Of a DNA stretch of 37,229 bases, positions 9 through 25,924 are shown piece by piece. Origin of the DNA: Candidatus Uhrbacteria bacterium RIFCSPHIGHO2_02_FULL_53_13 (GTDB taxonomy: Bacteria > Patescibacteriota > Patescibacteriia > UBA9934 > UBA11717); assembly GCA_001791035.1 (NCBI GenBank), contig MGDX01000006.1:1787-39015 (forward strand), given 5' to 3'. Both the position numbers and the translations under genes were made by a program. The notes beneath the pieces were generated by a model. It searched no databases and had not been told where the DNA came from. It worked only from the letters and a program-made list of their open reading frames with translations. Within the stretch, counting starts at the first letter, position 1. Each line of letters starts with the position of its first letter.

Positions 9-551
9 ATGTCTTTACTCAAATCACACTATTCAACGAAGGTGGCACCGGCATTGAAGGCGTCGCTTGGAAAGAAGAATATCCACGCGGTTCCAAAGAT
101 GGAGAAAGTCACCTTGAACGTGGGGCTCGGTTCTGGACTCAAGGATAGTCAGTTTCAGGAAACGGTAGCCAAATCGTTGCAACGCATCTCGGGACAGAAA
201 CCGGTGTTGACGAAGGCGCGCAAATCTATTGCCGCGTTCAAGATTCGCCAAGGCATGCCCATCGGCATAAAAGTGACGCTTCGAGGACCGCGCATGTATG
301 ATTTTGTCGAAAAGCTGGTTGCGGTGACGTTTCCTCGCGTGCGCGATTTTCGCGGTATCGATCGCAAGAGTGTGGATCAATCCGGGAACTTCAACTACGG
401 ATTCAAGGAACACATTGCCTTTCCGGAAATTTCGTCCGACGAAGTGGAGCGCTTACACGGATTGCAAGTGACCATCACCACGTCTGCCAAGACGCGCGAA
501 GATGGCATAGCGCTGTTTGAGGCTCTGGGCTTCCCCTTTAAAGCAACATAA
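9..551 (+). CDS. rplE: 50S ribosomal protein L5 (uL5)
   Basis: 180-aa ORF with a uL5-like sequence (..KVTLNVGLG.., GMPIGIKVTLRG..MYDF..KL). It is the first gene of the conserved L5-S14-S8-L6-L18-S5-L15-SecY order. A TGA at 1-3 probably ends rplX. Confidence 0.95.
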   Translation: MSLLKSHYSTKVAPALKASLGKKNIHAVPKMEKVTLNVGLGSGLKDSQFQETVAKSLQRISGQKPVLTKARKSIAAFKIRQGMPIGIKVTLRGPRMYDFVEKLVAVTFPRVRDFRGIDRKSVDQSGNFNYGFKEHIAFPEISSDEVERLHGLQVTITTSAKTREDGIALFEALGFPFKAT

Positions 552-2065: not shown

Positions 2066-2803
2066 ATGCCTATGTCGACGGAAGAACATCAAGCATCGGT
2101 GAACGAGAATCAAGCATCGGGAATCTCGAATCAAGCAGAGTCGGAAACAACGATGGCGGTTTTGGATACCGCAACGGAGGTATCGGCTTCCGGAACTCCA
2201 GCGCCTTCGAGCGATGGGGAGCGCGGTGGACGCGGAGGTCAGCGTCGTCCTCGCCGCACGCGCGAGCGTGAACCGCGTGAATTTGAACAGACGATTCTTG
2301 ATCTTGCTCGTGTCACGCGCGTGACGAAAGGAGGTAAGCGCATGCGATTCCGCGTGGCGCTCGTGATCGGGGACAAAAAGGGACGCGTAGGATTTGGCGT
2401 GGCCAAAGGCGCCGATGTTCAAATGTCCATTCAGAAGGCGTACCATCAAGCGAAGAAGAACGTGACGAATTTGGAATTGGTGAACGGAACGTTTCCACAT
2501 CGCGTTTCAGCGTCGTTTAGCTCGGCGGATGTGTTGCTCATGCCGGCTCCAAGCGGAACGGGACTCAAGGCCGGTGGAGCCGTGCGTACGATTTTAGAAC
2601 TCGGCGGCGTGAGCGATGCGGTGGGAAAAATTCTTCGAGGCCACAATAAATTGAATGTTGCCAAAGCCGTGTTTAACGCGTTGAGTCAGATGACCATTCC
2701 AGAAGGCGTGACGACGGATAAGGAACAGCGCGCATCCAAGCGGAAAGAAATTCGTAAGGAGGCTTCCAAAAAGGTCGCAAAGAAAACGACCGCAAAGAGC
2801 TAG
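2066..2803 (+). CDS. rpsE: 30S ribosomal protein S5 (uS5) with N- and C-terminal low-complexity extensions
   Basis: The core ..VTRVTKGGKRMRFRVALVIGD.KGRVGFGVAKG.. and ..GTGLKAGGAVR..LE.GG.. is typical uS5. About 70 extra N-terminal residues (Ser/Glu/Arg-rich) and a Lys-rich tail are added. Confidence 0.93.
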   Translation: MPMSTEEHQASVNENQASGISNQAESETTMAVLDTATEVSASGTPAPSSDGERGGRGGQRRPRRTREREPREFEQTILDLARVTRVTKGGKRMRFRVALVIGDKKGRVGFGVAKGADVQMSIQKAYHQAKKNVTNLELVNGTFPHRVSASFSSADVLLMPAPSGTGLKAGGAVRTILELGGVSDAVGKILRGHNKLNVAKAVFNALSQMTIPEGVTTDKEQRASKRKEIRKEASKKVAKKTTAKS

Positions 2804-2806
2804 GAT

Positions 2807-3241
2807 ATGCCAATGACATTACACACCATCAAGCCGTCTCCGGGTTCTCGAAAGCGCAAGCTTCGTGTTGGTCGCGGACTGGCACGGCGAGGCGCGATGT
2901 CCGGGCGCGGTACGAAAGGACAGCGTGCTCGTTCGGGCGGCAAGAGCGGGCTCAAGGTGAAAGGATTGCGACAAACGCTTTTGCGTATCCCAAAATCGCG
3001 CGGATTCAAATCGCCGGTCGTGAAGGCGGCGACGGTGAGTCTTCGTGATGTGAATGACGTATCGTTGAAAGTCATTTCGCCGTCGAGTCTTAAAAAGATT
3101 GGATTGGTGAAAGAAACGCGGTACGGAGTGAAAATTTTAGGTACCGGCGCGCTTACAAAGGCGCTTACCGTAAAAGGATGCCAAGTCACGCAGTCGGCAA
3201 AAAAGCAGATTGAAGCAGCCGGAGGAACGATCGCAAGTTAG
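2807..3241 (+). CDS. rplO: 50S ribosomal protein L15 (uL15)
   Basis: ..LHTIKPSPGSRKRKLRVGRG...G.GTKGQ.ARSG.. is the uL15 signature. It starts 3 nt after the rpsE stop, so no rpmD lies between them. Confidence 0.93.
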   Translation: MPMTLHTIKPSPGSRKRKLRVGRGLARRGAMSGRGTKGQRARSGGKSGLKVKGLRQTLLRIPKSRGFKSPVVKAATVSLRDVNDVSLKVISPSSLKKIGLVKETRYGVKILGTGALTKALTVKGCQVTQSAKKQIEAAGGTIAS

Positions 3242-3246
3242 AGAGA

Positions 3247-3324
3247 GGAAGTTGAGAAGTTAGAGATCAGAGGTCCGAGGTCGGAACTGCGAGGCCCCTC
3301 GTAAGGAGTCAACGGCCAATAGCC
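3247..3324 (+). repeat. Copy A of a roughly 75-nt intergenic repeat element (copy B at 15648..15722)
   Basis: It shares collinear identical blocks with copy B: GGAAGTTG, GTTAGAGAT, GTCGGAACT, GCGAGGCC and AACGGCCAATAGC. It fills the unusually long (102 nt) rplO-secY spacer. Confidence 0.6.
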
Positions 3325-3343
3325 AAAAGATCATAGCCAAAAT

Positions 3344-4630
3344 ATGTTTGAAGCGTTTAGACGCATTTGGAATATTAAAGCCCTTCGCAAAAGTATCGGC
3401 TTCGTGATTCTCATGCTGATGCTGTTTCGATTTTTGGCAACCATTCCGGTGCCGGGGATTGATCCGGCATTAGTGCGCTCGGCTCTGGAAGGCAATCAGT
3501 TTTTTGGCTTGCTCAACATTTTTTCCGGCGGAACGCTCGAAAGCTTTTCTGTGGTGGCTCTTGGTGTGGCCCCTTACATTACAAGTTCGATTATTTTTCA
3601 ACTTTTAGTGATGGTCGTTCCATCTCTCAAGCGCATGCAAAAAGAGGAAGGAGAAGCGGGGCGCCAAAAAATGAATCAGATTACCCGTTGGGTTTCGGTG
3701 CCGCTTGCCGCCATCCAGGCCTACGGATTCATTGCGCTCATCTCTCAAGGGAGTGGCGGTGGAGCAGGACAGGGCCTGCTCATTATGGGTTTTAGTCTTT
3801 TTATGGCCATGCTCGTGATGATTGCCGGTTCGGTGTTCTTGATGTGGATTGGAGAGATTATCACAGAGAAAGGCATTGGGAACGGATTGTCCATCTTGAT
3901 TCTTGCGGGAATTATTGCGGCGTTTCCACGCTATCTTCAACAAACGATCGCTACGTTTGATCAAAGTCAAATCGTGAATATGGTGGTGTTTGCGATTGTG
4001 GCTCTCGTGACCATTGTGGTGGTTGTTGCGCTCAATGAAGCGAGCCGCAATGTGCCTGTGCATTATGCACGCCACCATGCAGGCAATCGGTTGAGCGGCG
4101 GCGTCAACTCTCAAATTCCGCTTAAAGTACTTATGGCCGGAGTGATTCCAATTATCTTCGCTATTTCGGTGGTGCTCTTTCCAACCATGATTGCACAATT
4201 CTTCTTGCACGCACAGTCGCCGACCTTGATTACGCTTGCCGAGTGGGTTCTGCGTACGTTCCAGAACAACTGGGTGTACGGCATTCTGTACTTCGTGCTC
4301 GTGTTTGGATTCACGTACTTCTACACAGGTGTCATTTTTCAACCAGACGAGATGGCAGAAAATTTACAAAAGCAAGGTGCGTTTATTCCTGGCGTGCGTC
4401 CGGGAACGCACACGGAGGCGTTTTTGCGCAATGTCATGAACCGTATCTTGCTTCTGGGAGCGACGGCTCTTGCAGTCATTGCCGTACTTCCGGTGGCCAT
4501 GCAGCCGCTCACGGGCTCGCAAACGTTAGTCGTCGGCGGAACGTCACTTCTTATTATTGTTGCGGTGGTGATTGATATTGTGCGCCAAACCGAAGCTCGG
4601 TTGGTGAGCTACGAGTACGAGCAGTTGTAG
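3344..4630 (+). CDS. secY: Preprotein translocase subunit SecY
   Basis: 428-aa polytopic membrane protein (..IFSGGTLESFSVVALGVAPYITSSII.QL..) in the conserved position after rplO. Confidence 0.95.
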   Translation: MFEAFRRIWNIKALRKSIGFVILMLMLFRFLATIPVPGIDPALVRSALEGNQFFGLLNIFSGGTLESFSVVALGVAPYITSSIIFQLLVMVVPSLKRMQKEEGEAGRQKMNQITRWVSVPLAAIQAYGFIALISQGSGGGAGQGLLIMGFSLFMAMLVMIAGSVFLMWIGEIITEKGIGNGLSILILAGIIAAFPRYLQQTIATFDQSQIVNMVVFAIVALVTIVVVVALNEASRNVPVHYARHHAGNRLSGGVNSQIPLKVLMAGVIPIIFAISVVLFPTMIAQFFLHAQSPTLITLAEWVLRTFQNNWVYGILYFVLVFGFTYFYTGVIFQPDEMAENLQKQGAFIPGVRPGTHTEAFLRNVMNRILLLGATALAVIAVLPVAMQPLTGSQTLVVGGTSLLIIVAVVIDIVRQTEARLVSYEYEQL

Positions 4631-4683: not shown

Positions 4684-4759
4684 TGGTGGAGCCGACGGGA
4701 TTTGAACCCGCAATGGCTGGTGTGGACTCAGCTAAGGTTACCGTTACCTTCACGGCCCC
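4684..4759 (-). tRNA. Atypical tRNA, anticodon CCA (nominally Trp), with an Ala-like acceptor stem (G3:U70, A73) and encoded CCA
   Basis: The minus strand reads GGGGCCG-TG-AAGG-TAACGGTAA-CCTT-A-GCTGA-GTCCACA-CCAGC-CATT-GCGGG-TTCAAAT-CCCGT-CGGCTCC-A-CCA. This is a 76-nt cloverleaf with a canonical T-arm and GG in the D-loop. The anticodon arm is non-canonical: an A31-C39 mismatch, G32 and C37. Confidence 0.6.
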
Positions 4760-15568: not shown

Positions 15569-15645
15569 GGCGGGGTAGCTCAGCTGGTTAGAGCACAGGC
15601 TTCATAAGCCTGGGGTCGCGGGTTCAAGTCCCGCCTCCGCTACCA
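15569..15645 (+). tRNA. tRNA-Met (anticodon CAT; elongator type, tRNA-Ile2/lysidine not excluded)
   Basis: GGCGGGG-TA-GCTC-AGCTGGTTA-GAGC-A-CAGGC-TTCATAA-GCCTG-GGGTC-GCGGG-TTCAAGT-CCCGC-CTCCGCT-A-CCA. Canonical 77-nt cloverleaf. Confidence 0.9.
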
Positions 15646-15743: not shown

Positions 15744-15820
15744 AGCGGGGTAGAGCAGCCAGGCAGCTCGCCAGGCCCATAACCTGGAGGTCGCAGGTTC
15801 GAATCCTGCCCCCGCAACCA
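15744..15820 (+). tRNA. Initiator tRNA-fMet (anticodon CAT)
   Basis: AGCGGGG-TA-GAGC-AGCCAGGCA-GCTC-G-CCAGG-CCCATAA-CCTGG-AGGTC-GCAGG-TTCGAAT-CCTGC-CCCCGCA-A-CCA. It has a 1:72 mismatch (A-A) and A11:U24, both initiator hallmarks, and close overall similarity to bacterial tRNA-fMet. Confidence 0.9.
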
Positions 15821-18119: not shown

Positions 18120-18206
18120 TGGTGGGCGGAGAGGGAATCGAACCCTCACAGTATTGCTACCACTGGATTTTGAGTCCAGCGCGTCTACCAATTCCGCCAT
18201 CCGCCC
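18120..18206 (-). tRNA. tRNA-Leu (anticodon CAA), type II with a long variable arm
   Basis: The minus strand reads GGGCGGA-TG-GCGG-AATTGGTAGA-CGC-G-CTGGA-CTCAAAA-TCCAG-TGGTAGCAATACTGT-GAGGG-TTCGATT-CCCTC-TCCGCCC-A-CCA. 87 nt. Confidence 0.92.
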
Positions 18207-20035: not shown

Positions 20036-20041
20036 CCGGCT

Positions 20042-21553
20042 TCAGATTCTTTTTGTTTTCGTGGCGGCTCCCATCATTCCATCAATCCACTGTCTCACGC
20101 GATTCCGCGTCGCCGCGCGGATTTTTGATTGCGCGTGATGCGTTTTGACGAATTTGAGCCAATCCGGATTCGGGCCTTTGCGCTTTTTGTCGGTGACAAT
20201 GATGCACAAATCGCCGGATTTGAGCGGCAGGTCGAGTGGCACGGCATGATCGTTCACGCTCGCCGACACGCATTTGTTTCCAACGTCGGTGTGAATATGA
20301 TACGCAAAATCAACGGGCGTCGATCCTTCCGGCAGGTCAATCACATCGCCCTCGGGAGTCAGAACAAAAATGCGATCTTGAAACATGTCGAGCTTCACTT
20401 CGTCCAAGTGTTTGAGAAAATCTTTTCCGCTGGAAATTTCTTTGTGGATGTCAATCAGATCCTGCATCCACGGAATCTTTGGCGGGTCTTCTGAACCGTG
20501 CTGTTTGTAATGCCAATGTGCCGCCACGCCAAACTCGGCTTCGTTATGCATGTCTTTGGTGCGAATCTGAAACTCGACAATGCCGCAGTGTTCATCCAAG
20601 ACGGTGCTGTGCAATGACTGATATCCGTTCGGCTTTGGCTGGGCAATGTAGTCCTTGATGCGGCCTTTGAGCGGCACCCAGTGTGAGTGCAAGATACCAA
20701 GAGCGGCATAGCAATCGGTAACGGAGTCCACGATCATACGTATGGCAATGAGATCGTAAATCTTGGAAACGTCTCCGTGATACGACTGCAGTTTGCGCCA
20801 AAAGCTGTACAGAAATTTGCGGCGGCCAGAAATGTATTGAATCGGAATATGGGCTTTCTGAAGCTGTGTTCGCGCTTCGGCGATGGTGAATTCTATATCG
20901 TCGGTTCTGACCTGCACCTGTTGATCAAAGAGTGTTTTTGCGGCGTCATACTCCTGTGGCATGGCATATCGAAACGCGTTGTCTTCGAGCCGCCCCTTCA
21001 TCTCACCCATGCCCAAACGACCAGCAATTGGTGCGTAAATTTCCAGCACTTCTTTGGCAACACGCTGGCGTTTGTGTTCCGGCATGGCAAAGAGTGTTTC
21101 GACATTGTGCAGGCGATCGGCAAACTTAATAAAGACGACGCGGACGTCCGCCGCCATAGCCAGAAACATCTTGCGCAGATTCTCGGCGTAGCGATCGATG
21201 CCGCGATATTTGACCTTCCCAAGTTTGGTGACGCCGGCCACCATGGAGGCGATGTCCTCGCCAAACGCCTCTTGCACATCTTCGAGTGTACGATCCGTAT
21301 CTTCGGGGACATCGTGCAACAAACCGGCGATGACGATTTCAAGTGGGAGTTGCATTTCGGCCAAGCGCACGGCTGTGGCAATAGGGTGGATGATGTAAGA
21401 GGCGCCGGAGTAACGTCGCTTGGTTCCGTGCGCTTCTTTGGCATACAAATATGCATCCCGGACGCGATCAATGTCAGGATGTTCGTAGTGTGTTTTGAGG
21501 ACGCGCTCAAGGTCCTCAAATGACCACAGGTACTCTTGTGGTTGAGATTTCAT
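20042..21553 (-). CDS. rel: Bifunctional (p)ppGpp synthetase/hydrolase Rel (HD-SYNTH-TGS), C-terminally truncated
   Basis: HD motif LLHDVPEDT, synthetase motifs GRRKFLYSFWRK, DLIAIRMIV, YQSLHSTV, VEFQIRT, and a TGS segment IFVLTPEGDVIDLPEGSTPVDFAY.IH. ATG 21553 (MKSQPQEY..) is preferred. The 194-codon upstream extension in the ORF track is antisense to ORF 21648..22196. Confidence 0.9.
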   Translation of the reverse strand: MKSQPQEYLWSFEDLERVLKTHYEHPDIDRVRDAYLYAKEAHGTKRRYSGASYIIHPIATAVRLAEMQLPLEIVIAGLLHDVPEDTDRTLEDVQEAFGEDIASMVAGVTKLGKVKYRGIDRYAENLRKMFLAMAADVRVVFIKFADRLHNVETLFAMPEHKRQRVAKEVLEIYAPIAGRLGMGEMKGRLEDNAFRYAMPQEYDAAKTLFDQQVQVRTDDIEFTIAEARTQLQKAHIPIQYISGRRKFLYSFWRKLQSYHGDVSKIYDLIAIRMIVDSVTDCYAALGILHSHWVPLKGRIKDYIAQPKPNGYQSLHSTVLDEHCGIVEFQIRTKDMHNEAEFGVAAHWHYKQHGSEDPPKIPWMQDLIDIHKEISSGKDFLKHLDEVKLDMFQDRIFVLTPEGDVIDLPEGSTPVDFAYHIHTDVGNKCVSASVNDHAVPLDLPLKSGDLCIIVTDKKRKGPNPDWLKFVKTHHAQSKIRAATRNRVRQWIDGMMGAATKTKRI

Positions 21554-21647: not shown

Positions 21648-22196
21648 ATGGCAGAACGTGAATTGGCTCGCGCAAGAGCTGAAGAACAAGCGGTAACAAC
21701 AGAGTCGGAGCGTCCACGTGAACAACCAAGGGGTGAAACTGCAGAAGCGGCCGCGGAAACGGCTCCTGCGCCCGCTCGTGTAAGTGATGGGGAGCGCGCG
21801 GCGGCGACGGAAAGCGCAACGGTGGGCGCGCGAGAAGCCGTGAGCGCGCGCGATCGGCTTGTTGGCGCGGCAAAAAAAGCGGGAAAGGGAGCGCTGGGCG
21901 CGGCAAAAGCCACAGGCAAAGCGGCGGGAAAAGCCGTCTCTTTCAGCGGTGGATGGTTAGGCAACGAAATGGTGTCCGATTGGAATCGCACGGCGTTGGG
22001 GTTTGGCGAGCGCATGCGGCGCATCACGAATGTCGCGGGGCGAATCTTCAATCCGTTCATTCGCATGGGAGCGGCGATGGAAGATTGGGCAAAGGGATAT
22101 CCTCCGTTTAGTTGGTTTATGAAAAAGACGGACACGACAGAAGCGTTGGAAGATCTTCTTCCGGATTACGGAAAAGGCGATGGCAAGAAGAAATAA
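21648..22196 (+). CDS. Hypothetical Ala/Glu-rich protein (182 aa)
   Basis: Starts MAERELARARAEEQ... The N-half is low complexity. The C-half is aromatic-rich (..GGWLGNEMVSDWNRTALGFGERM..NPFIRMGAAMEDWAKGYPPFSWF..). No family recognised. Confidence 0.5.
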   Translation: MAERELARARAEEQAVTTESERPREQPRGETAEAAAETAPAPARVSDGERAAATESATVGAREAVSARDRLVGAAKKAGKGALGAAKATGKAAGKAVSFSGGWLGNEMVSDWNRTALGFGERMRRITNVAGRIFNPFIRMGAAMEDWAKGYPPFSWFMKKTDTTEALEDLLPDYGKGDGKKK

Positions 22197-22230: not shown

Positions 22231-23559
22231 TTAGATGTGGAGCTCTCTCTTCAGCTGCTGCATGGTGTACCTCCAGTTTTTGCTCCGTACAAGTCGGTTA
22301 TTCCATTCGACGCCAAAGAGCGATGGCGGTCGAATGGTGGGGAGAAACTGTTGGAACCGGCGCCAGGCAAAAAGCCGGTCGTTCTCATCTCCCATGCTAA
22401 ACAATACGTTTGCCGCTACCGACAGCGGCAAGACCTGTATTTCTACAGGATGTCCCGCAATCATCGCGTGGACACGGTGCGCGCGAAAACGCGTGGATGC
22501 GAACGCGCTCTTTGAAGCGGTCGCATCGGCACTCGGCACACGGCCTGGACGCGGCATGGCCGTCAGTCCGGCGAGAGTGACTCCGAGATTGGCAAAGAGC
22601 CACACACCCATCTCATCAAATTCCTCATCGGCAACGACGAGCCGAACGCCCATGGCGTCAGGCGTGTACGTTCGTCCCGACTGCGACTTTGCGCAGAATT
22701 TGAACCACCGCGTTAGGGGACCCTTGACGCGGATCATGATGTACGCCTCAATCGTTCGGTCGTTCCACGGGACGCCTACGCGACATCCGTGAATGTCGGC
22801 AAGCTGCTCCACGGACTGTGCAGACGTTCCTGGCCGCAGAAAGCGACAACACTGAAGCTGGTTGCTCGACATCACGATCGGGAGAGACGTGGGTTCCCAC
22901 GATCCCGTCACCAATTCGTGACTCTCAAAATACGCTCGAACGAGCCGAATCTCGTCATCCGACACGGCGATCGCTCCTCCCGTATCGGTTCCGTCATCGC
23001 TGGCGCCTTCCGGAGTATCGTCGCGCATGCTTTCAAGAAGCCGCGTGCGAAATTCCGGATCGTCGCGCAGGATGATATCGAGTGACTGGAGCGTCATAAG
23101 GAAGATGAGGCGCGCTTCGTAAGCGCGGCGCTGATCCTCCACTGTCCTTGGCGCTTCTTGAGGGAAAGCGGCCGTGCGCAGGCGCACCACCGAGTCGCCG
23201 ATGCCAAGGATTGGCAGGGCAATTTCGTGATAGGCGGGGTCCACGAAACGTCGCACACAGCGGCGCAAGTCGCGCTTCAACTGTCGTGCCAACACGCGGA
23301 ACATTTCTGCGAGCGTATCTAAACCGCGCTCGGTCTGTTCCTCGTCGTCGGCGTACTGCCGTGCGAGCGGCCCAAAGATGAGCCCGAGGGCATGCGACGG
23401 ATCTTCGAGAATCGTCGCCGTCTCACGTTCCAACATGTCAATCAATGCACGCTGGACTTCTGTCAACTGTCTCCAATCCTCGCTGTCCCGATCGATCACG
23501 GGAATCAGGAGGCTGGGCAGTGCCAGGTCCATGTTGTTTCCGGTAATCGGGCGGTCCAT
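22231..23559 (-). CDS. RelA/SpoT-synthetase-domain (small alarmone synthetase / toxSAS-like) protein with an unknown N-terminal domain of about 240 aa
   Basis: The C-terminal part carries IRVKGPLTRWFK (RxKxxx[ST]xxxK), DAMGVRLVV (DxxGxR), FRAHRVH and PVEIQVLP (EIQ) in RSH-synthetase order. There is no HD motif. The coding call is strong (442-aa ORF with its own promoter). The family call rests on motifs only. Confidence 0.6.
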   Translation of the reverse strand: MDRPITGNNMDLALPSLLIPVIDRDSEDWRQLTEVQRALIDMLERETATILEDPSHALGLIFGPLARQYADDEEQTERGLDTLAEMFRVLARQLKRDLRRCVRRFVDPAYHEIALPILGIGDSVVRLRTAAFPQEAPRTVEDQRRAYEARLIFLMTLQSLDIILRDDPEFRTRLLESMRDDTPEGASDDGTDTGGAIAVSDDEIRLVRAYFESHELVTGSWEPTSLPIVMSSNQLQCCRFLRPGTSAQSVEQLADIHGCRVGVPWNDRTIEAYIMIRVKGPLTRWFKFCAKSQSGRTYTPDAMGVRLVVADEEFDEMGVWLFANLGVTLAGLTAMPRPGRVPSADATASKSAFASTRFRAHRVHAMIAGHPVEIQVLPLSVAANVLFSMGDENDRLFAWRRFQQFLPTIRPPSLFGVEWNNRLVRSKNWRYTMQQLKRELHI

Positions 23560-23584: not shown

Positions 23585-23613
23585 AGTATCGTCTTTTTTT
23601 GTCAAAATGTCAA
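23585..23613 (-). promoter_or_regulatory. Putative promoter of the SAS-like gene
   Basis: On the minus strand, TTGACA (23613-23608), 17 nt, GATACT (23590-23585), about 25 nt upstream of ATG 23559. Confidence 0.5.
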
Positions 23614-23624
23614 TCTCCTCTCTC

Positions 23625-23662
23625 GTAAAATCAATATCCACCAACACATATCGGTGGATATT
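23625..23662 (-). terminator. Terminator-like hairpin after topA
   Basis: 10-bp stem AATATCCACC/GGTGGATATT (23633-23662), 10-nt loop, followed on the minus strand by GATTTTAC. Confidence 0.5.
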
Positions 23663-23668
23663 GAGTTC

Positions 23669-25924
23669 CTACTTTACGTTTGCCCGTTTGTGTCGAGAAC
23701 GTTTTGGCTTCTTCAAAAGTTCAATGGCTTGTTCGAGCGTGATGTCGAGCACCGTAAAATCGGCCTTGGCTGGAATACTGCGCGATTCCTCGTCGCAAGC
23801 AATGTACGGGCCAAAGCGGCCAACGTGCGCGGTGACTTCAGAGTCTTGATACGTGCCAAGCGTACGCGGAAGGGACAGTAGGGAACTGGCGATTTCAAGC
23901 GTCACGTCGTCCGGCGCCATGCCGCGCAATAAGCTCGCGCGCTTGAGTTTTTGCTTTTTGCCGTCCACCTCTTCTTCCTCTCCCAGTTGCACATACGGAC
24001 CAAAGCGCCCAGTGCGCAGTGTAACGGCTTTTTGCGTTGCCGCGTCCGTGCCAAGCACCTTCGGTTCTTGCAGTGCTTGCTTTGTGCCGTCCTTGTTGAG
24101 CGCGATGGTGTGCTTGCACTCGGGATAATTTGAGCACGCCATAAACTTGCCGAAGCGCCCAAGTTTGATGACCATCGGGCTTTGGCATTTTTCGCACAGC
24201 TCGTCGGTCTTCTCCTCGGTGAGTTCTTTTTTGTTCACCTCCTGCTCTTTTTGCGTGATGCGTTCTTGAAGCGGCTCAAAAAAGTCGCGCACGAGCGGAA
24301 CCCAATCGCGCGCTCCTTCTTCGACGCGATCCAAATCCGCTTCCATGGTGGCCGTAAAATCTTTGTCAACGATGTTGGGAAAGTGCTCGACTAGAAGGTC
24401 GTTGACGACAAACGCAATGTCGGTCGGAAACAGTTTTTTGTTGTCGTCGCGCTCCACATAGCCGCGGTCGATGATGGTTGAAATGGTCGGCGCGTAGGTG
24501 GATGGCCGGCCGATGCCGTTTTCTTCGAGCGTTTTGACGAGCGTCGCGTCCGAGTAGCGCGCCGGCGGTTCGGTAAAGTGCTGCGTTGGCGTGAGGTTTG
24601 AAAGCGCTACGGGGTCGTGCTCTTTGAGTTCGGGAAGAAGCGTTTCTTTGGAGGCATCGGGATACAGCTTCATGTAACCGTCAAACACAATCACATTTCC
24701 GCTCGCGCGAAACGTGCCGTGCTCTCCGACAAGATCAACGCCCTGCTTGCGCAGTTTCGCCGGTGCCATTTGTGTGGCGACCGCGCGCCGCCAAATGAGG
24801 TCGTACAGTTTGAATTGTGTCGGATCTAGGTGCACGCGTACAGAATCTGGCGTGCGCGCCGCGCTTGTGGGGCGAATCGCCTCGTGCGCTTCCTGCGCGC
24901 CTTTCGCGTTTGTCTTGAAATGCCGCGGCTTATCGGCACGATACGCTTGGCCAAACGCCCCCTCTATAAACTCGTGTGCCTCGGACACAAACACATCCGC
25001 CATGTTGAGCGAGTCGGTGCGCATATACGTGATGAGCCCCGTCATACCGTCTTTGCCAAGCGCCACGCCTTCGTACAACTGTTGAGCCACGCGCATGGTT
25101 TGCTTGGAGCTCATGTGCAGTTTGTTGTTGGCGTCTTGTTGGAGCGTCGAGGTTTTGTACGGCGGCTTTGGCTGTTTGGTCTGCTCCTTTGTTTCAATGG
25201 ACGCGACGCGGTAGGTGTCGCTTCGCAAAACGGCTACCATCTCGTGTGCTTCTGCGTCGGTTTTGATGTCCATCTTGCCAACCTTTTTTTCACGATACGT
25301 CTTGAGTTTTGCGTCGAACGGAACGTTGGCATGTACAAATACGGCGTCGAGCGACCAGTATTCTTCGGAAATAAAAGCTTGGCGTTCACGTTCGCGTTCA
25401 ACGATGAATCGCATGGCGACCGATTGCACGCGACCGGCCGACAAACCGCGCGCGACTTTTTTCCATAAAAACGGCGAGAGCGTATAGCCCACCAAGCGGT
25501 CGAGGACGCGGCGGGCTTGTTGAGCTTGAAACAGATCGAGGTTGATGGAGCGCGGATGCGACATGGCCTCGTCAATGGCACGCTTGGTAATTTCGTGAAA
25601 CACGATGCGCTTGGCGGTCTTGGGATTGATCTTCAAAACATGCGCGATATGCCAAGCAATCGCTTCACCTTCGCGATCATCGTCTGTGGCGATATAAACG
25701 TCGTTCGCTTTGCTGGCCGCCGCCTTGAGCTCGCTGACGCGCTTGCGTTTGTCGGGAGGGATCACGTACTTGGGTTCGTAGCCGTGCTCGGTATCCACGC
25801 CGATTTTCGACTTTGGCAAATCGCGGATGTGCCCGTACGAAGACACCACATCAAAAGCGTCGCCGAGCATGCGTTTGATGGTCTTGGCCTTTGTGGGGGA
25901 CTCTACGATGACGAGACGGTTCAT
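23669..25924 (-). CDS. topA: DNA topoisomerase I
   Basis: ATG 25924 gives the Toprim N-terminus MNRLVIVESPTKAKTIKRMLG. Also ..YIATDDDREGEAIAWH.. and C-terminal zinc-ribbon Cys motifs (CEKC..C..C). Confidence 0.93.
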   Translation of the reverse strand: MNRLVIVESPTKAKTIKRMLGDAFDVVSSYGHIRDLPKSKIGVDTEHGYEPKYVIPPDKRKRVSELKAAASKANDVYIATDDDREGEAIAWHIAHVLKINPKTAKRIVFHEITKRAIDEAMSHPRSINLDLFQAQQARRVLDRLVGYTLSPFLWKKVARGLSAGRVQSVAMRFIVERERERQAFISEEYWSLDAVFVHANVPFDAKLKTYREKKVGKMDIKTDAEAHEMVAVLRSDTYRVASIETKEQTKQPKPPYKTSTLQQDANNKLHMSSKQTMRVAQQLYEGVALGKDGMTGLITYMRTDSLNMADVFVSEAHEFIEGAFGQAYRADKPRHFKTNAKGAQEAHEAIRPTSAARTPDSVRVHLDPTQFKLYDLIWRRAVATQMAPAKLRKQGVDLVGEHGTFRASGNVIVFDGYMKLYPDASKETLLPELKEHDPVALSNLTPTQHFTEPPARYSDATLVKTLEENGIGRPSTYAPTISTIIDRGYVERDDNKKLFPTDIAFVVNDLLVEHFPNIVDKDFTATMEADLDRVEEGARDWVPLVRDFFEPLQERITQKEQEVNKKELTEEKTDELCEKCQSPMVIKLGRFGKFMACSNYPECKHTIALNKDGTKQALQEPKVLGTDAATQKAVTLRTGRFGPYVQLGEEEEVDGKKQKLKRASLLRGMAPDDVTLEIASSLLSLPRTLGTYQDSEVTAHVGRFGPYIACDEESRSIPAKADFTVLDITLEQAIELLKKPKRSRHKRANVK

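Follow-up and report, generated by a model that had tools for sequence, protein, structure and literature searches.

The 37,229-nucleotide stretch of DNA analysed here (the window), part of contig MGDX01000006.1 of the groundwater bacterium Candidatus Uhrbacteria bacterium RIFCSPHIGHO2_02_FULL_53_13, carries a gene, referred to below as gene X, whose product (X) is very probably a true homologue of the synthetase domain of RelA/SpoT homologue (RSH) enzymes. The original prediction had regarded X as a second, highly divergent RelA/SpoT-synthetase-domain protein devoid of a hydrolase domain, located close to the long RSH gene rel. This core reading is upheld by comparisons of family profiles with PDB sequences, by profile-profile alignment and by the pattern of conservation. 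X is likely to be enzymatically active. The fuller statement, i.e., that it is a housekeeping RSH-type pyrophosphokinase regulated through its N-terminal domain and making a nucleotide alarmone, is put forward with only a little better than even confidence.

RSH homology and catalytic motifs of X

Gene X is a real conserved gene, and its family is genuine but very rare. Full-length homologues found in a large protein collection share 99%, 61%, 60%, 60% and 37% identity with X, and when 1.84 billion cluster representatives were searched exhaustively with a profile, 12 proteins were recovered at E <=1e-3, eight of them at E <=1e-10. The relatives reached by that search extend down to about 20% identity in the family alignment of 16 sequences (A2), which, together with an alignment of 13 C-terminal domains (A3), underlies the comparisons below. 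Profile searches of genome contigs and of metagenome contigs added one more locus and one fragment, respectively, and a further search with the C-terminal domain profile yielded nothing new, only one fragment that was already known. No copy was found among the 2.9 million viral contigs searched. Every named homologue is annotated as a 'hypothetical protein', and the source names, 'Candidatus Uhrbacteria bacterium' and 'Patescibacteria group bacterium', support the setting in the candidate phyla radiation (CPR) suggested earlier. In Candidatus Uhrbacteria, gene X belongs to the chromosome and is inherited vertically.

The assignment to the RSH superfamily is carried largely by profile comparisons, all of which were built on the same family alignment. 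At E <=10, a profile derived from A3 matched 20 of 177,635 PDB sequences, and 19 of these 20 are RSH proteins (Rel, RelA, RelP and RelQ). The best match has an E-value of 7.1e-5, with the RxK and DxxGxR strands in register and, in the longer alignments, ExQ as well; synthetase domains of long RSHs score 24-26 bits and RelP/RelQ 16-17 bits. When the C-terminal part of X was compared with the synthetase part of four Rel sequences using hhalign, the two aligned over 122 columns with 95.0% probability (E 3.7e-8), whereas the controls gave 0.9% (N-terminal domain against HD), 0.1% (N-terminal domain against synthetase) and 0.1% (C-terminal domain against HD). The corresponding full-length comparison reached 91.8% (E 7.5e-7) and paired X residues 262-378 with Rel residues 224-328. 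Among the 324 open reading frames (ORFs) of the window, the family profile recognised only X itself and the adjacent Rel (E 1.4e-4), and among 5.8 billion sequences it detected a long RSH of 720 aa at E 9e-3.

How far X stands from accepted RSHs can be gauged from the Rel protein of the window. Its synthetase domain, used as a query against PDB sequences, found RelQ/RelP only at an E-value of about 1e-4 and detected no toxSAS chain. The distance between X and Rel is thus similar to that between accepted RSH subfamilies, and the lack of toxSAS proteins among the PDB matches of X is uninformative because a canonical Rel query does not find them either. Within Pfam, PF04607 is the only family touched repeatedly by relatives of X, in the same place each time and always below threshold. 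Such matches were obtained with seven of the ten distant relatives scanned, with one of the six closest and with two further cluster members, the best E-values being 1.2e-4, 2.2e-4, 1.4e-3 and 7.5e-3. By profile and motif evidence, X appears to belong in the RSH superfamily, though it falls below the curated Pfam threshold.

The motifs point in the same direction. All four strings quoted in the original prediction (IRVKGPLTRWFK, DAMGVRLVV, FRAHRVH and PVEIQVLP) are present exactly, and their order and spacing, as claimed, nearly equal those of the neighbouring Rel, apart from one insertion between motifs 2 and 3, where the loop of X is 13 residues longer. The R-K-S/T-K residues follow each other in steps of 2/4/4 in both proteins. 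The step from K to D is 14 residues in X vs. 13 in Rel, that from D to R five in each, that from E to Q two in each, and that from the motif-3 aromatic residue to E 15 vs. 16. Motif 1 of X is aligned to R240/K242/S246/K250 of Rel, motif 2 to D263/R268, and motif 4 to E323/Q325 and to the EVQ of Thermus thermophilus Rel. In the hhalign comparison, the catalytic Glu, the Asp and the RxK patch fall on E323, D263 and R240/K242 of Rel, in agreement with the view that these are homologous positions.

Conservation within the family is concentrated at the same residues. A2 contains only eight invariant columns, five of which are RSH catalytic positions (R277, K279, D301, R306 and Q375), and position 373 is E or D in all 16 sequences. 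The probability of such an overlap arising by chance is about 6e-5 (hypergeometric, calculated after the motifs were known). At motif 3, hhalign pairs SAFAS (F353-A-S355) with GYQSL of Rel (Y307-Q-S309) at low confidence. F358, conserved in at least 90% of A2, is favoured as the motif-3 aromatic residue because its spacing to the Glu, its near-invariance and the predicted strand agree. The RT of EIQIRT is not kept in X, which reads EIQVLP, and the family-specific signature at aa 400-421 has no RSH counterpart.

An AlphaFold2 model built with the 16-sequence alignment has a predicted local distance difference test score (pLDDT) of 80.7 and a predicted template modelling score (pTM) of 0.82; with a 6-sequence alignment, the pLDDT was 40 and the model was unusable. 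The modelled order of strands and helices (Table 1) fits the RSH synthetase core known from published structures (hairpin-RxK, helix, DxxGxR strand, helix, two strands-ExQ, helix), except that the strand normally found after the second helix is missing from the model. The tail that follows the catalytic core (aa 394-442) is predicted to be helical and contains no Cys.

The part of the protein that precedes the catalytic module had been described as acidic, helical and unrecognisable, and this description holds. Residues 1-215 have an isoelectric point (pI) of 4.6, the N-terminal domain is mostly acidic across the family, and the model predicts helices. Neither alone nor as a profile does the domain match anything in Pfam, NCBIfam, PADLOC or PDB sequences, and no protein that carries it without the catalytic module was found in the exhaustive search of 1.84 billion representatives. 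The statement that X has no HD hydrolase motif also stands: there is no HD dipeptide, and neither X nor any family member scanned matches HD or HD_4 in Pfam. In hhalign, the N-terminal domain and the HD domain of Rel gave only 0.9%, with a thin Rel profile of four sequences.

The N-terminal domain evolves faster than the catalytic half. Identities to X in the N- and C-terminal domains are 60% and 67% for P0002, 30% and 48% for P0005, 32% and 33% for P0007, 28% and 34% for P0008, and 22% and 31% for P0009. Moreover, relatives of 248-313 aa keep only 36-94 residues ahead of the catalytic module, and the short family members P0011 (248 aa) and P0012 (261 aa) represent the catalytic module alone. 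Because these short relatives are devoid of most of the N-terminal domain, it is regarded as an accessory domain of the Uhrbacteria branch.

Proposed function and alternative explanations

An active ATP-dependent 3'-pyrophosphokinase is the best reading of X because the residues predicted to bind the ATP phosphates and the metal never change in the family. The basic patch formed by R277, K279, T283 and K287 would hold the phosphates of ATP, and D301 and E373 would coordinate Mg2+. The acceptor would stack on a conserved aromatic residue, F358 or F353, and its 3'-OH would then receive the beta-gamma pyrophosphate of ATP. A purine nucleotide is the most probable acceptor, in which case the product would be an alarmone of the (p)ppGpp or (pp)pApp type. 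A nucleotide product is favoured because gene X occupies a fixed, monocistronic housekeeping site beside rel and because distant family members have neighbours from nucleotide metabolism. The N-terminal domain might gate this activity upon some signal, and the HD hydrolase of the neighbouring Rel might remove the product; X might also be linked functionally to Rel or to the adjacent gene Y.

Several results weigh against this proposal. The sequence of X alone gave no useful match in Pfam, NCBIfam, PADLOC or PDB sequences; the sole marginal one, TetR_C_15 (E 1.2), is noise. PF04607, the profile recommended in the original prediction for checking the assignment, did not match X even at E up to 10. 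Its relatives did respond, but below threshold, the best scores of 22.7 and 21.9 bits not reaching the gathering threshold of 27 bits. The structural check suggested at the same time (AlphaFold and Foldseek), which was run on the whole model, gave non-significant matches that point the same way as the sequence evidence. No significant match was found in PDB, where the N-terminal domain of RelSeq ranked first (E 0.46, template modelling (TM) score about 0.2) and Bacillus subtilis Rel fifth; the top Rel matches are non-significant (E 0.46-1.9, TM 0.14-0.21). Likewise, no significant match was found in BFVD, where a phage 'RelA/SpoT' protein ranked third (E 0.43). There is thus a significant profile match to RSHs and no significant structural one (E 0.46), and because the Foldseek match is non-significant, the RSH claim is drawn from profiles of the sequence and from conserved motifs rather than from a comparison of folds.

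Other unfavourable points concern the acceptor. The His of YxSxH is not conserved in the X family, and the RxKD segment, which in Rel binds the 5'-phosphates of the acceptor, is replaced by the 13-residue-longer loop, which is poorly conserved and modelled with low confidence. Because of these two changes, a guanine-nucleotide acceptor is not specifically supported. Furthermore, the catalytic module is strongly basic, with a pI of 9.9 for residues 216-442 of X and of 9.3-11.5 in all 16 members, values that describe bulk charge and not a mapped surface.

It is this charge that gives some weight to a toxin-like role. The original prediction had offered two functional branches, a regulatory synthetase and a toxSAS or defence module, and only the first is retained as the favoured one. 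According to the second, X would be a chromosomally fixed toxSAS-like translation inhibitor acting by pyrophosphorylation of tRNA at its 3'-CCA end (or of some other RNA), and its acidic N-terminal domain would inhibit or sense, following a CapRel-like logic, until released by phage infection or starvation. FaRel2 needs a basic patch for tRNA recognition, whereas RelQ is reported to be acidic at the corresponding surface (bioRxiv 10.1101/2021.04.30.441581). In this respect X is closer to the tRNA-targeting toxSAS enzymes than to those of RelQ type; a basic catalytic domain throughout the family, joined in most members to an acidic N-terminal domain, would suit such a mechanism. So would the lack of conservation of the guanosine-phosphate-binding RxKD segment, the pTM of 0.82, which suggests that the two domains pack together, and the tRNA- or ribosome-related neighbours pth and der. 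However, X is monocistronic and has no co-directional partner gene, and its housekeeping site is fixed over deep divergence, unlike the patchy distribution of mobile toxin-antitoxin and defence genes. It is absent from the viral contigs searched, and PADLOC offers no meaningful model (one of the 16 members gives a single match at E 0.025). Its extra domain is N-terminal and helical rather than C-terminal and zinc-finger-like, and the short members, which keep only 36-94 N-terminal residues, have no evident antitoxin gene alongside. A housekeeping pyrophosphokinase is more likely than a toxSAS or defence module, and the toxSAS-like explanation is considered rather unlikely.

A bolder variant is given a similarly small share of belief. 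X would be the first member of an RSH clade not recognised before, its acidic N-terminal domain of novel fold would mask a strongly basic pyrophosphokinase, and the acceptor would be an RNA 3' end (tRNA or rRNA) or a nucleotide other than GDP/GTP. Such a protein would amount to a toxSAS that has been domesticated, inhibits itself and serves to control translation as a housekeeping function. If this were true, a growth brake would be hard-wired in the Uhrbacteria chromosome beside a C-terminally shortened Rel.

Another explanation, held to be about as doubtful, concerns origin and is compatible with the favoured reading of the catalytic half. X might have originated from an ancient duplication of the N-terminal half of the adjacent Rel and have diverged highly since; its N-terminal domain would be a degenerate pseudo-HD domain, and a RelA/SpoT-like division of labour would have arisen independently in this CPR lineage. 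Gene X lies by rel in all seven loci that share its arrangement, and the two proteins have the same order and sizes of domains, i.e., approx. 180 all-helical residues followed by a synthetase module of approx. 190 residues. The higher profile scores of long RSHs (24-26 bits vs. 16-17 bits for RelP/RelQ) are in line with such a descent, as are the top Foldseek matches in PDB, in which Rel structures of two domains are aligned with X along 407 and 465 columns. Nonetheless, these matches are non-significant, with the E-values and TM scores given above, no family member matches HD or HD_4, and a profile of the N-terminal domain finds nothing in PDB. The hhalign value of 0.9% against the Rel HD domain points the same way, as a weak negative given the thin four-sequence Rel profile.

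It is improbable that X is an RSH-derived pseudoenzyme or a protein of nucleotidyltransferase fold with other chemistry (nucleotidyl transfer or nucleotide binding only). The extreme divergence, the loss of the motif-3 His and of the RT of EIQIRT (EIQVLP in X), and the lack of a significant structural match would fit such a protein. However, the metal and triphosphate residues (R277, K279, D301, R306, E/D373 and Q375) are kept across 16 sequences at 20-60% identity, though pseudoenzymes usually lose such residues, and RSH is the only family detected by any profile. Finally, a chance resemblance of motifs in a protein unrelated to RSHs, for which the lack of a direct Pfam, NCBIfam or PDB match with the single sequence might be cited, is highly improbable, since several profile tests, which share one family alignment, lead to no family other than RSHs, the hhalign controls remain at noise level and the invariant residues coincide with catalytic positions.

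Genomic context of gene X

Gene X is monocistronic, with a predicted promoter of its own and a predicted hairpin on each side (Table 1). The promoter claimed earlier, TTGACA-17-GATACT, was confirmed at 23613..23585, as were the hairpins on either side of the gene, which are more stable than shuffled sequences (z -6.2 upstream, z -5.1 downstream). Similar signals accompany orthologues: in locus L002, where the orthologue is 61% identical, TTGACA-17-CATACT lies 20 nt before the gene and behind the topA terminator, and TTGACA/TTGACT-17 sites are also found upstream of the orthologues in L012 and L007. The upstream hairpin of the window is probably the topA terminator, which insulates gene X, and the one between genes X and Y is probably a bidirectional terminator because it folds on both strands. 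L007 has 700 bp without a called gene between topA and X (1038-1740), with three terminator-like hairpins and several promoter-like sites.

Table 1. Features of gene X, its product and its surroundings; positions refer to the window and motif roles are predicted
Feature	Residues of X	Position	Strand	Remarks
Gene X		22231..23559	-	ATG-started ORF, 442 codons; homologues at 99% to ~20% identity
N-terminal domain	1-181	23017..23559	-	all-helical, about 8 helices; motifs IFGPLARQY, AYEARL, LRDDP
Acidic linker (DTPEGASDDGTDTGGAI)	182-198	22966..23016	-	pLDDT <50; length varies in A2
Catalytic module	199-442	22231..22965	-	RSH-synthetase-like core and family-specific C-terminal helices; very basic
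Motif 1, R277-V-K279-GPL-T283-RWF-K287 (RxKxxx[ST]xxxK)	277-287	22699..22731	-	ATP-phosphate-binding basic patch (predicted); R277, K279 invariant (n=16)
Motif 2, D301-AM-G304-V-R306 (DxxGxR)	301-306	22642..22659	-	Mg-binding catalytic Asp (predicted); D301, R306 invariant
Motif 3 region (FASTRFRAHRVH)	353-364	22468..22503	-	candidate acceptor-stacking aromatic residue F358 or F353
Motif 4, E373-I-Q375 (ExQ)	373-375	22435..22443	-	catalytic Glu (predicted); Q375 invariant (n=16)
Family-specific C-terminal signature (R400 ... R410-P411 ... E418-W419-N-N)	400-421	22297..22362	-	R400, P411, W419 invariant (n=16)
Model, helices	27-178			about eight helices
Model, linker	182-198			disordered, acidic
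Model, helix	201-213
Model, strand	223-231
Model, hairpin	251-278			ends in RxK
Model, helix	281-292			follows the RxK hairpin
Model, DxxGxR strand	303-309
Model, helix	311-325			follows the DxxGxR strand
Model, loop	328-347			low confidence
Model, hairpin	361-378			ends in ExQ, then helices out to 439
Promoter, TTGACA-17-GATACT		23585..23613	-	sigma-70-like; ends 26 nt before the gene X ATG
Hairpin, then U-rich tract		23625..23672	-	directly after topA; -24.5 kcal/mol, z -6.2
Hairpin between the convergent X and Y stop codons		22200..22230	both	- strand -24.6 kcal/mol, z -5.1; + strand -28.0, z -5.5
Gene Y		21648..22196	+	conserved 182-aa protein; convergent with X, divergent from rel
rel		20042..21541	-	499 aa; HD_4, RelA_SpoT and TGS (Pfam E 8e-42, 1e-36 and 1e-18)

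The analysis of homologous neighbourhoods that had been proposed earlier revealed a fixed core arrangement in seven loci (the window, L001, L002, L003, L004, L007 and L012), which agree as far as their contigs reach. The composite gene order is der, pth, dprA, topA, X, Y, rel, parB and parA, and the X orthologues in these loci range from 99% down to 28-31% identity. One source label stands out: L004 (CAYHRP010000020.1) is titled 'uncultured Gammaproteobacteria bacterium', yet topA, X and Y are arranged in it as in Uhrbacteria, and a 448-aa protein that apparently belongs to it clusters at >=90% identity with a fragment whose source name is 'Patescibacteria group bacterium'. The gammaproteobacterial label is probably wrong.

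Wherever the contig of a syntenic locus covers that flank, gene Y occupies the same position (L011 is too short to show it). The five copies aligned share 27-55% identity. The N-terminal half of the protein is rich in Ala, Glu and Arg, of low complexity and probably disordered, whereas the C-terminal half is conserved and rich in Trp and Phe (GGWL..SDWNRTALGFGER..FNP.IR.GAAME.WG.GYPPFSWF); no family match was found in Pfam, PADLOC or PDB sequences. In L002, X and Y are separated by an insertion (2792-3552, - strand) that comprises a gene of the Fic/DOC family (PF02661, E 1.2e-5) and an ORF of 64 aa and looks like a toxin-antitoxin module of the Doc/Phd type. Since these genes sit between X and Y, it is with rel that Y stays. 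Gene Y was considered as a classical type II antitoxin and rejected, being convergent with X and remaining with rel in L002 despite the insertion.

The rel gene encodes a long RSH of the bifunctional type with nothing beyond the TGS domain, i.e., no helical, zinc-finger or ACT-type C-terminal domains. It had been called truncated, and its product indeed ends after TGS at 499 aa; it is naturally short, as its orthologues have 500-503 aa, and the 697-aa ORF of the window is merely an upstream open frame. The distance between X and rel, given earlier as 0.7 kb, is 690 bp to the Rel start.

Distant family members occur in other surroundings. In another Uhrbacteria genome (L009, 7231-10350), P0016 (367 aa) is encoded between an NDK gene and a gene for a MazG-family pyrophosphohydrolase; of the other distant members, one lies before a PNP/UDP phosphorylase gene and one near a U32 peptidase gene. 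None of those at the loci examined forms part of a toxin-antitoxin-like pair. Elsewhere in the window, a pair of tRNA-Met (CAT) genes separated by 100 bp is located at 15569-15645 and 15744-15820 (+ strand), tRNA-Trp lies at 4684-4759 (- strand) and tRNA-Leu (CAA) at 18120-18206 (- strand). The GC skew is positive in every 1-kb bin of the window (1-37229), even though the genes turn from the + to the - strand where parB meets rel, near position 20040.

Significance and comparison with known systems

The X family seems to constitute an RSH clade that has gone unrecognised, is restricted to CPR bacteria and possesses a new accessory domain. RSH censuses rely on hidden Markov model thresholds, which the family does not reach, and no paper linking Uhrbacteria or Patescibacteria to small alarmone synthetases (SASs) was found in the literature searched. 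Because the genomes of CPR bacteria are very small, the retention of a second enzyme of RSH type in a fixed place by a Rel without the usual ribosome-sensing C-terminal domains suggests a real division of labour in the control of stress or growth in these uncultured organisms. Study of the N-terminal domain might uncover a regulatory input not seen before, and the divergence of the acceptor site might point to a novel product made by the RSH fold. Nonetheless, the finding does not overturn current views, and its impact is likely to be specialist rather than general because the family is rare and has few members (12 representatives at E <=1e-3).

Among known systems, the synthetase domains of long RSHs (PF04607; 7oiw/6yxa from B. 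subtilis, 5xnx from Mycobacterium tuberculosis and 6s2t from T. thermophilus) are the best profile matches of X. X shares with them the order and, nearly, the spacing of RxKxxx[ST]xxxK, DxxGxR and ExQ, an aromatic residue that precedes the catalytic Glu by one hairpin, and the predicted succession of strands and helices. Its overall layout agrees in order and size with HD followed by synthetase, but the first part gives no sequence signal (0.9%) and the two-domain Foldseek alignments are non-significant. Unlike long RSHs, it falls below the Pfam threshold and is devoid of a sequence-detectable HD domain and of TGS or further C-terminal domains, ending about 50 residues past the catalytic core. 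The segment corresponding to RxKD and the G-loop is a 13-residue-longer, non-conserved loop, EIQVLP replaces EIQIRT, and both the R400, P411 and W419 signature and the strongly basic catalytic domain set X apart. Because it has no detectable HD and no TGS domain, X is not a long RSH.

X resembles RelQ/RelP (5dec, 6ewz and 6fgk) in being a synthetase without a hydrolase and a chromosomal second synthetase alongside a long Rel, and the short family members (248-261 aa) share the single-module layout. However, profile scores to RelQ/RelP are weaker than those to long RSHs, X has approx. 200 extra N-terminal residues (442 aa vs. about 200-250 aa), and it is basic, not acidic. Thus, because of the extra domain, X is not a canonical SAS.

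With the toxSAS enzymes (FaRel, FaRel2, PhRel, PhRel2 and CapRel), X shares a divergent, synthetase-only RSH module. Some toxSAS proteins have basic surfaces and non-guanosine acceptors (the CCA end of tRNA or adenine nucleotides), and CapRel has a fused regulatory domain (PMC7229694; 10.1101/2021.04.30.441581; PMC11782079). In contrast to these proteins, X has no adjacent co-directional antitoxin, resides at a fixed housekeeping site, does not occur on the viral contigs searched and matches no defence model. Unlike CapRel, it has no C-terminal zinc-finger-like domain, its large extra domain being N-terminal and helical.

Two further comparisons bear on the N-terminal extension. The NCBIfam families TIGR04552 and TIGR04562 weakly match the relatives P0013 (203-252) and P0015 (246-292) over RxK...DxxGxR (E 0.09-0.17), in the middle of profiles of about 350 positions; X itself gives no match. 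These hints raise the possibility that they could be a sister family with an N-terminal extension and an RSH-like module. Genes annotated as TIGR04552 have been reported in Myxococcus and Bdellovibrio, and the literature found to mention this family gives no function for it. The other comparison is with Mycobacterium smegmatis RelZ, in which RNase HII is joined to a SAS. RelZ (PMC7591505) provides a precedent for a chromosomal, non-toxin SAS with an added N-terminal domain; in X, this domain resembles neither RNase HII nor any other known domain.

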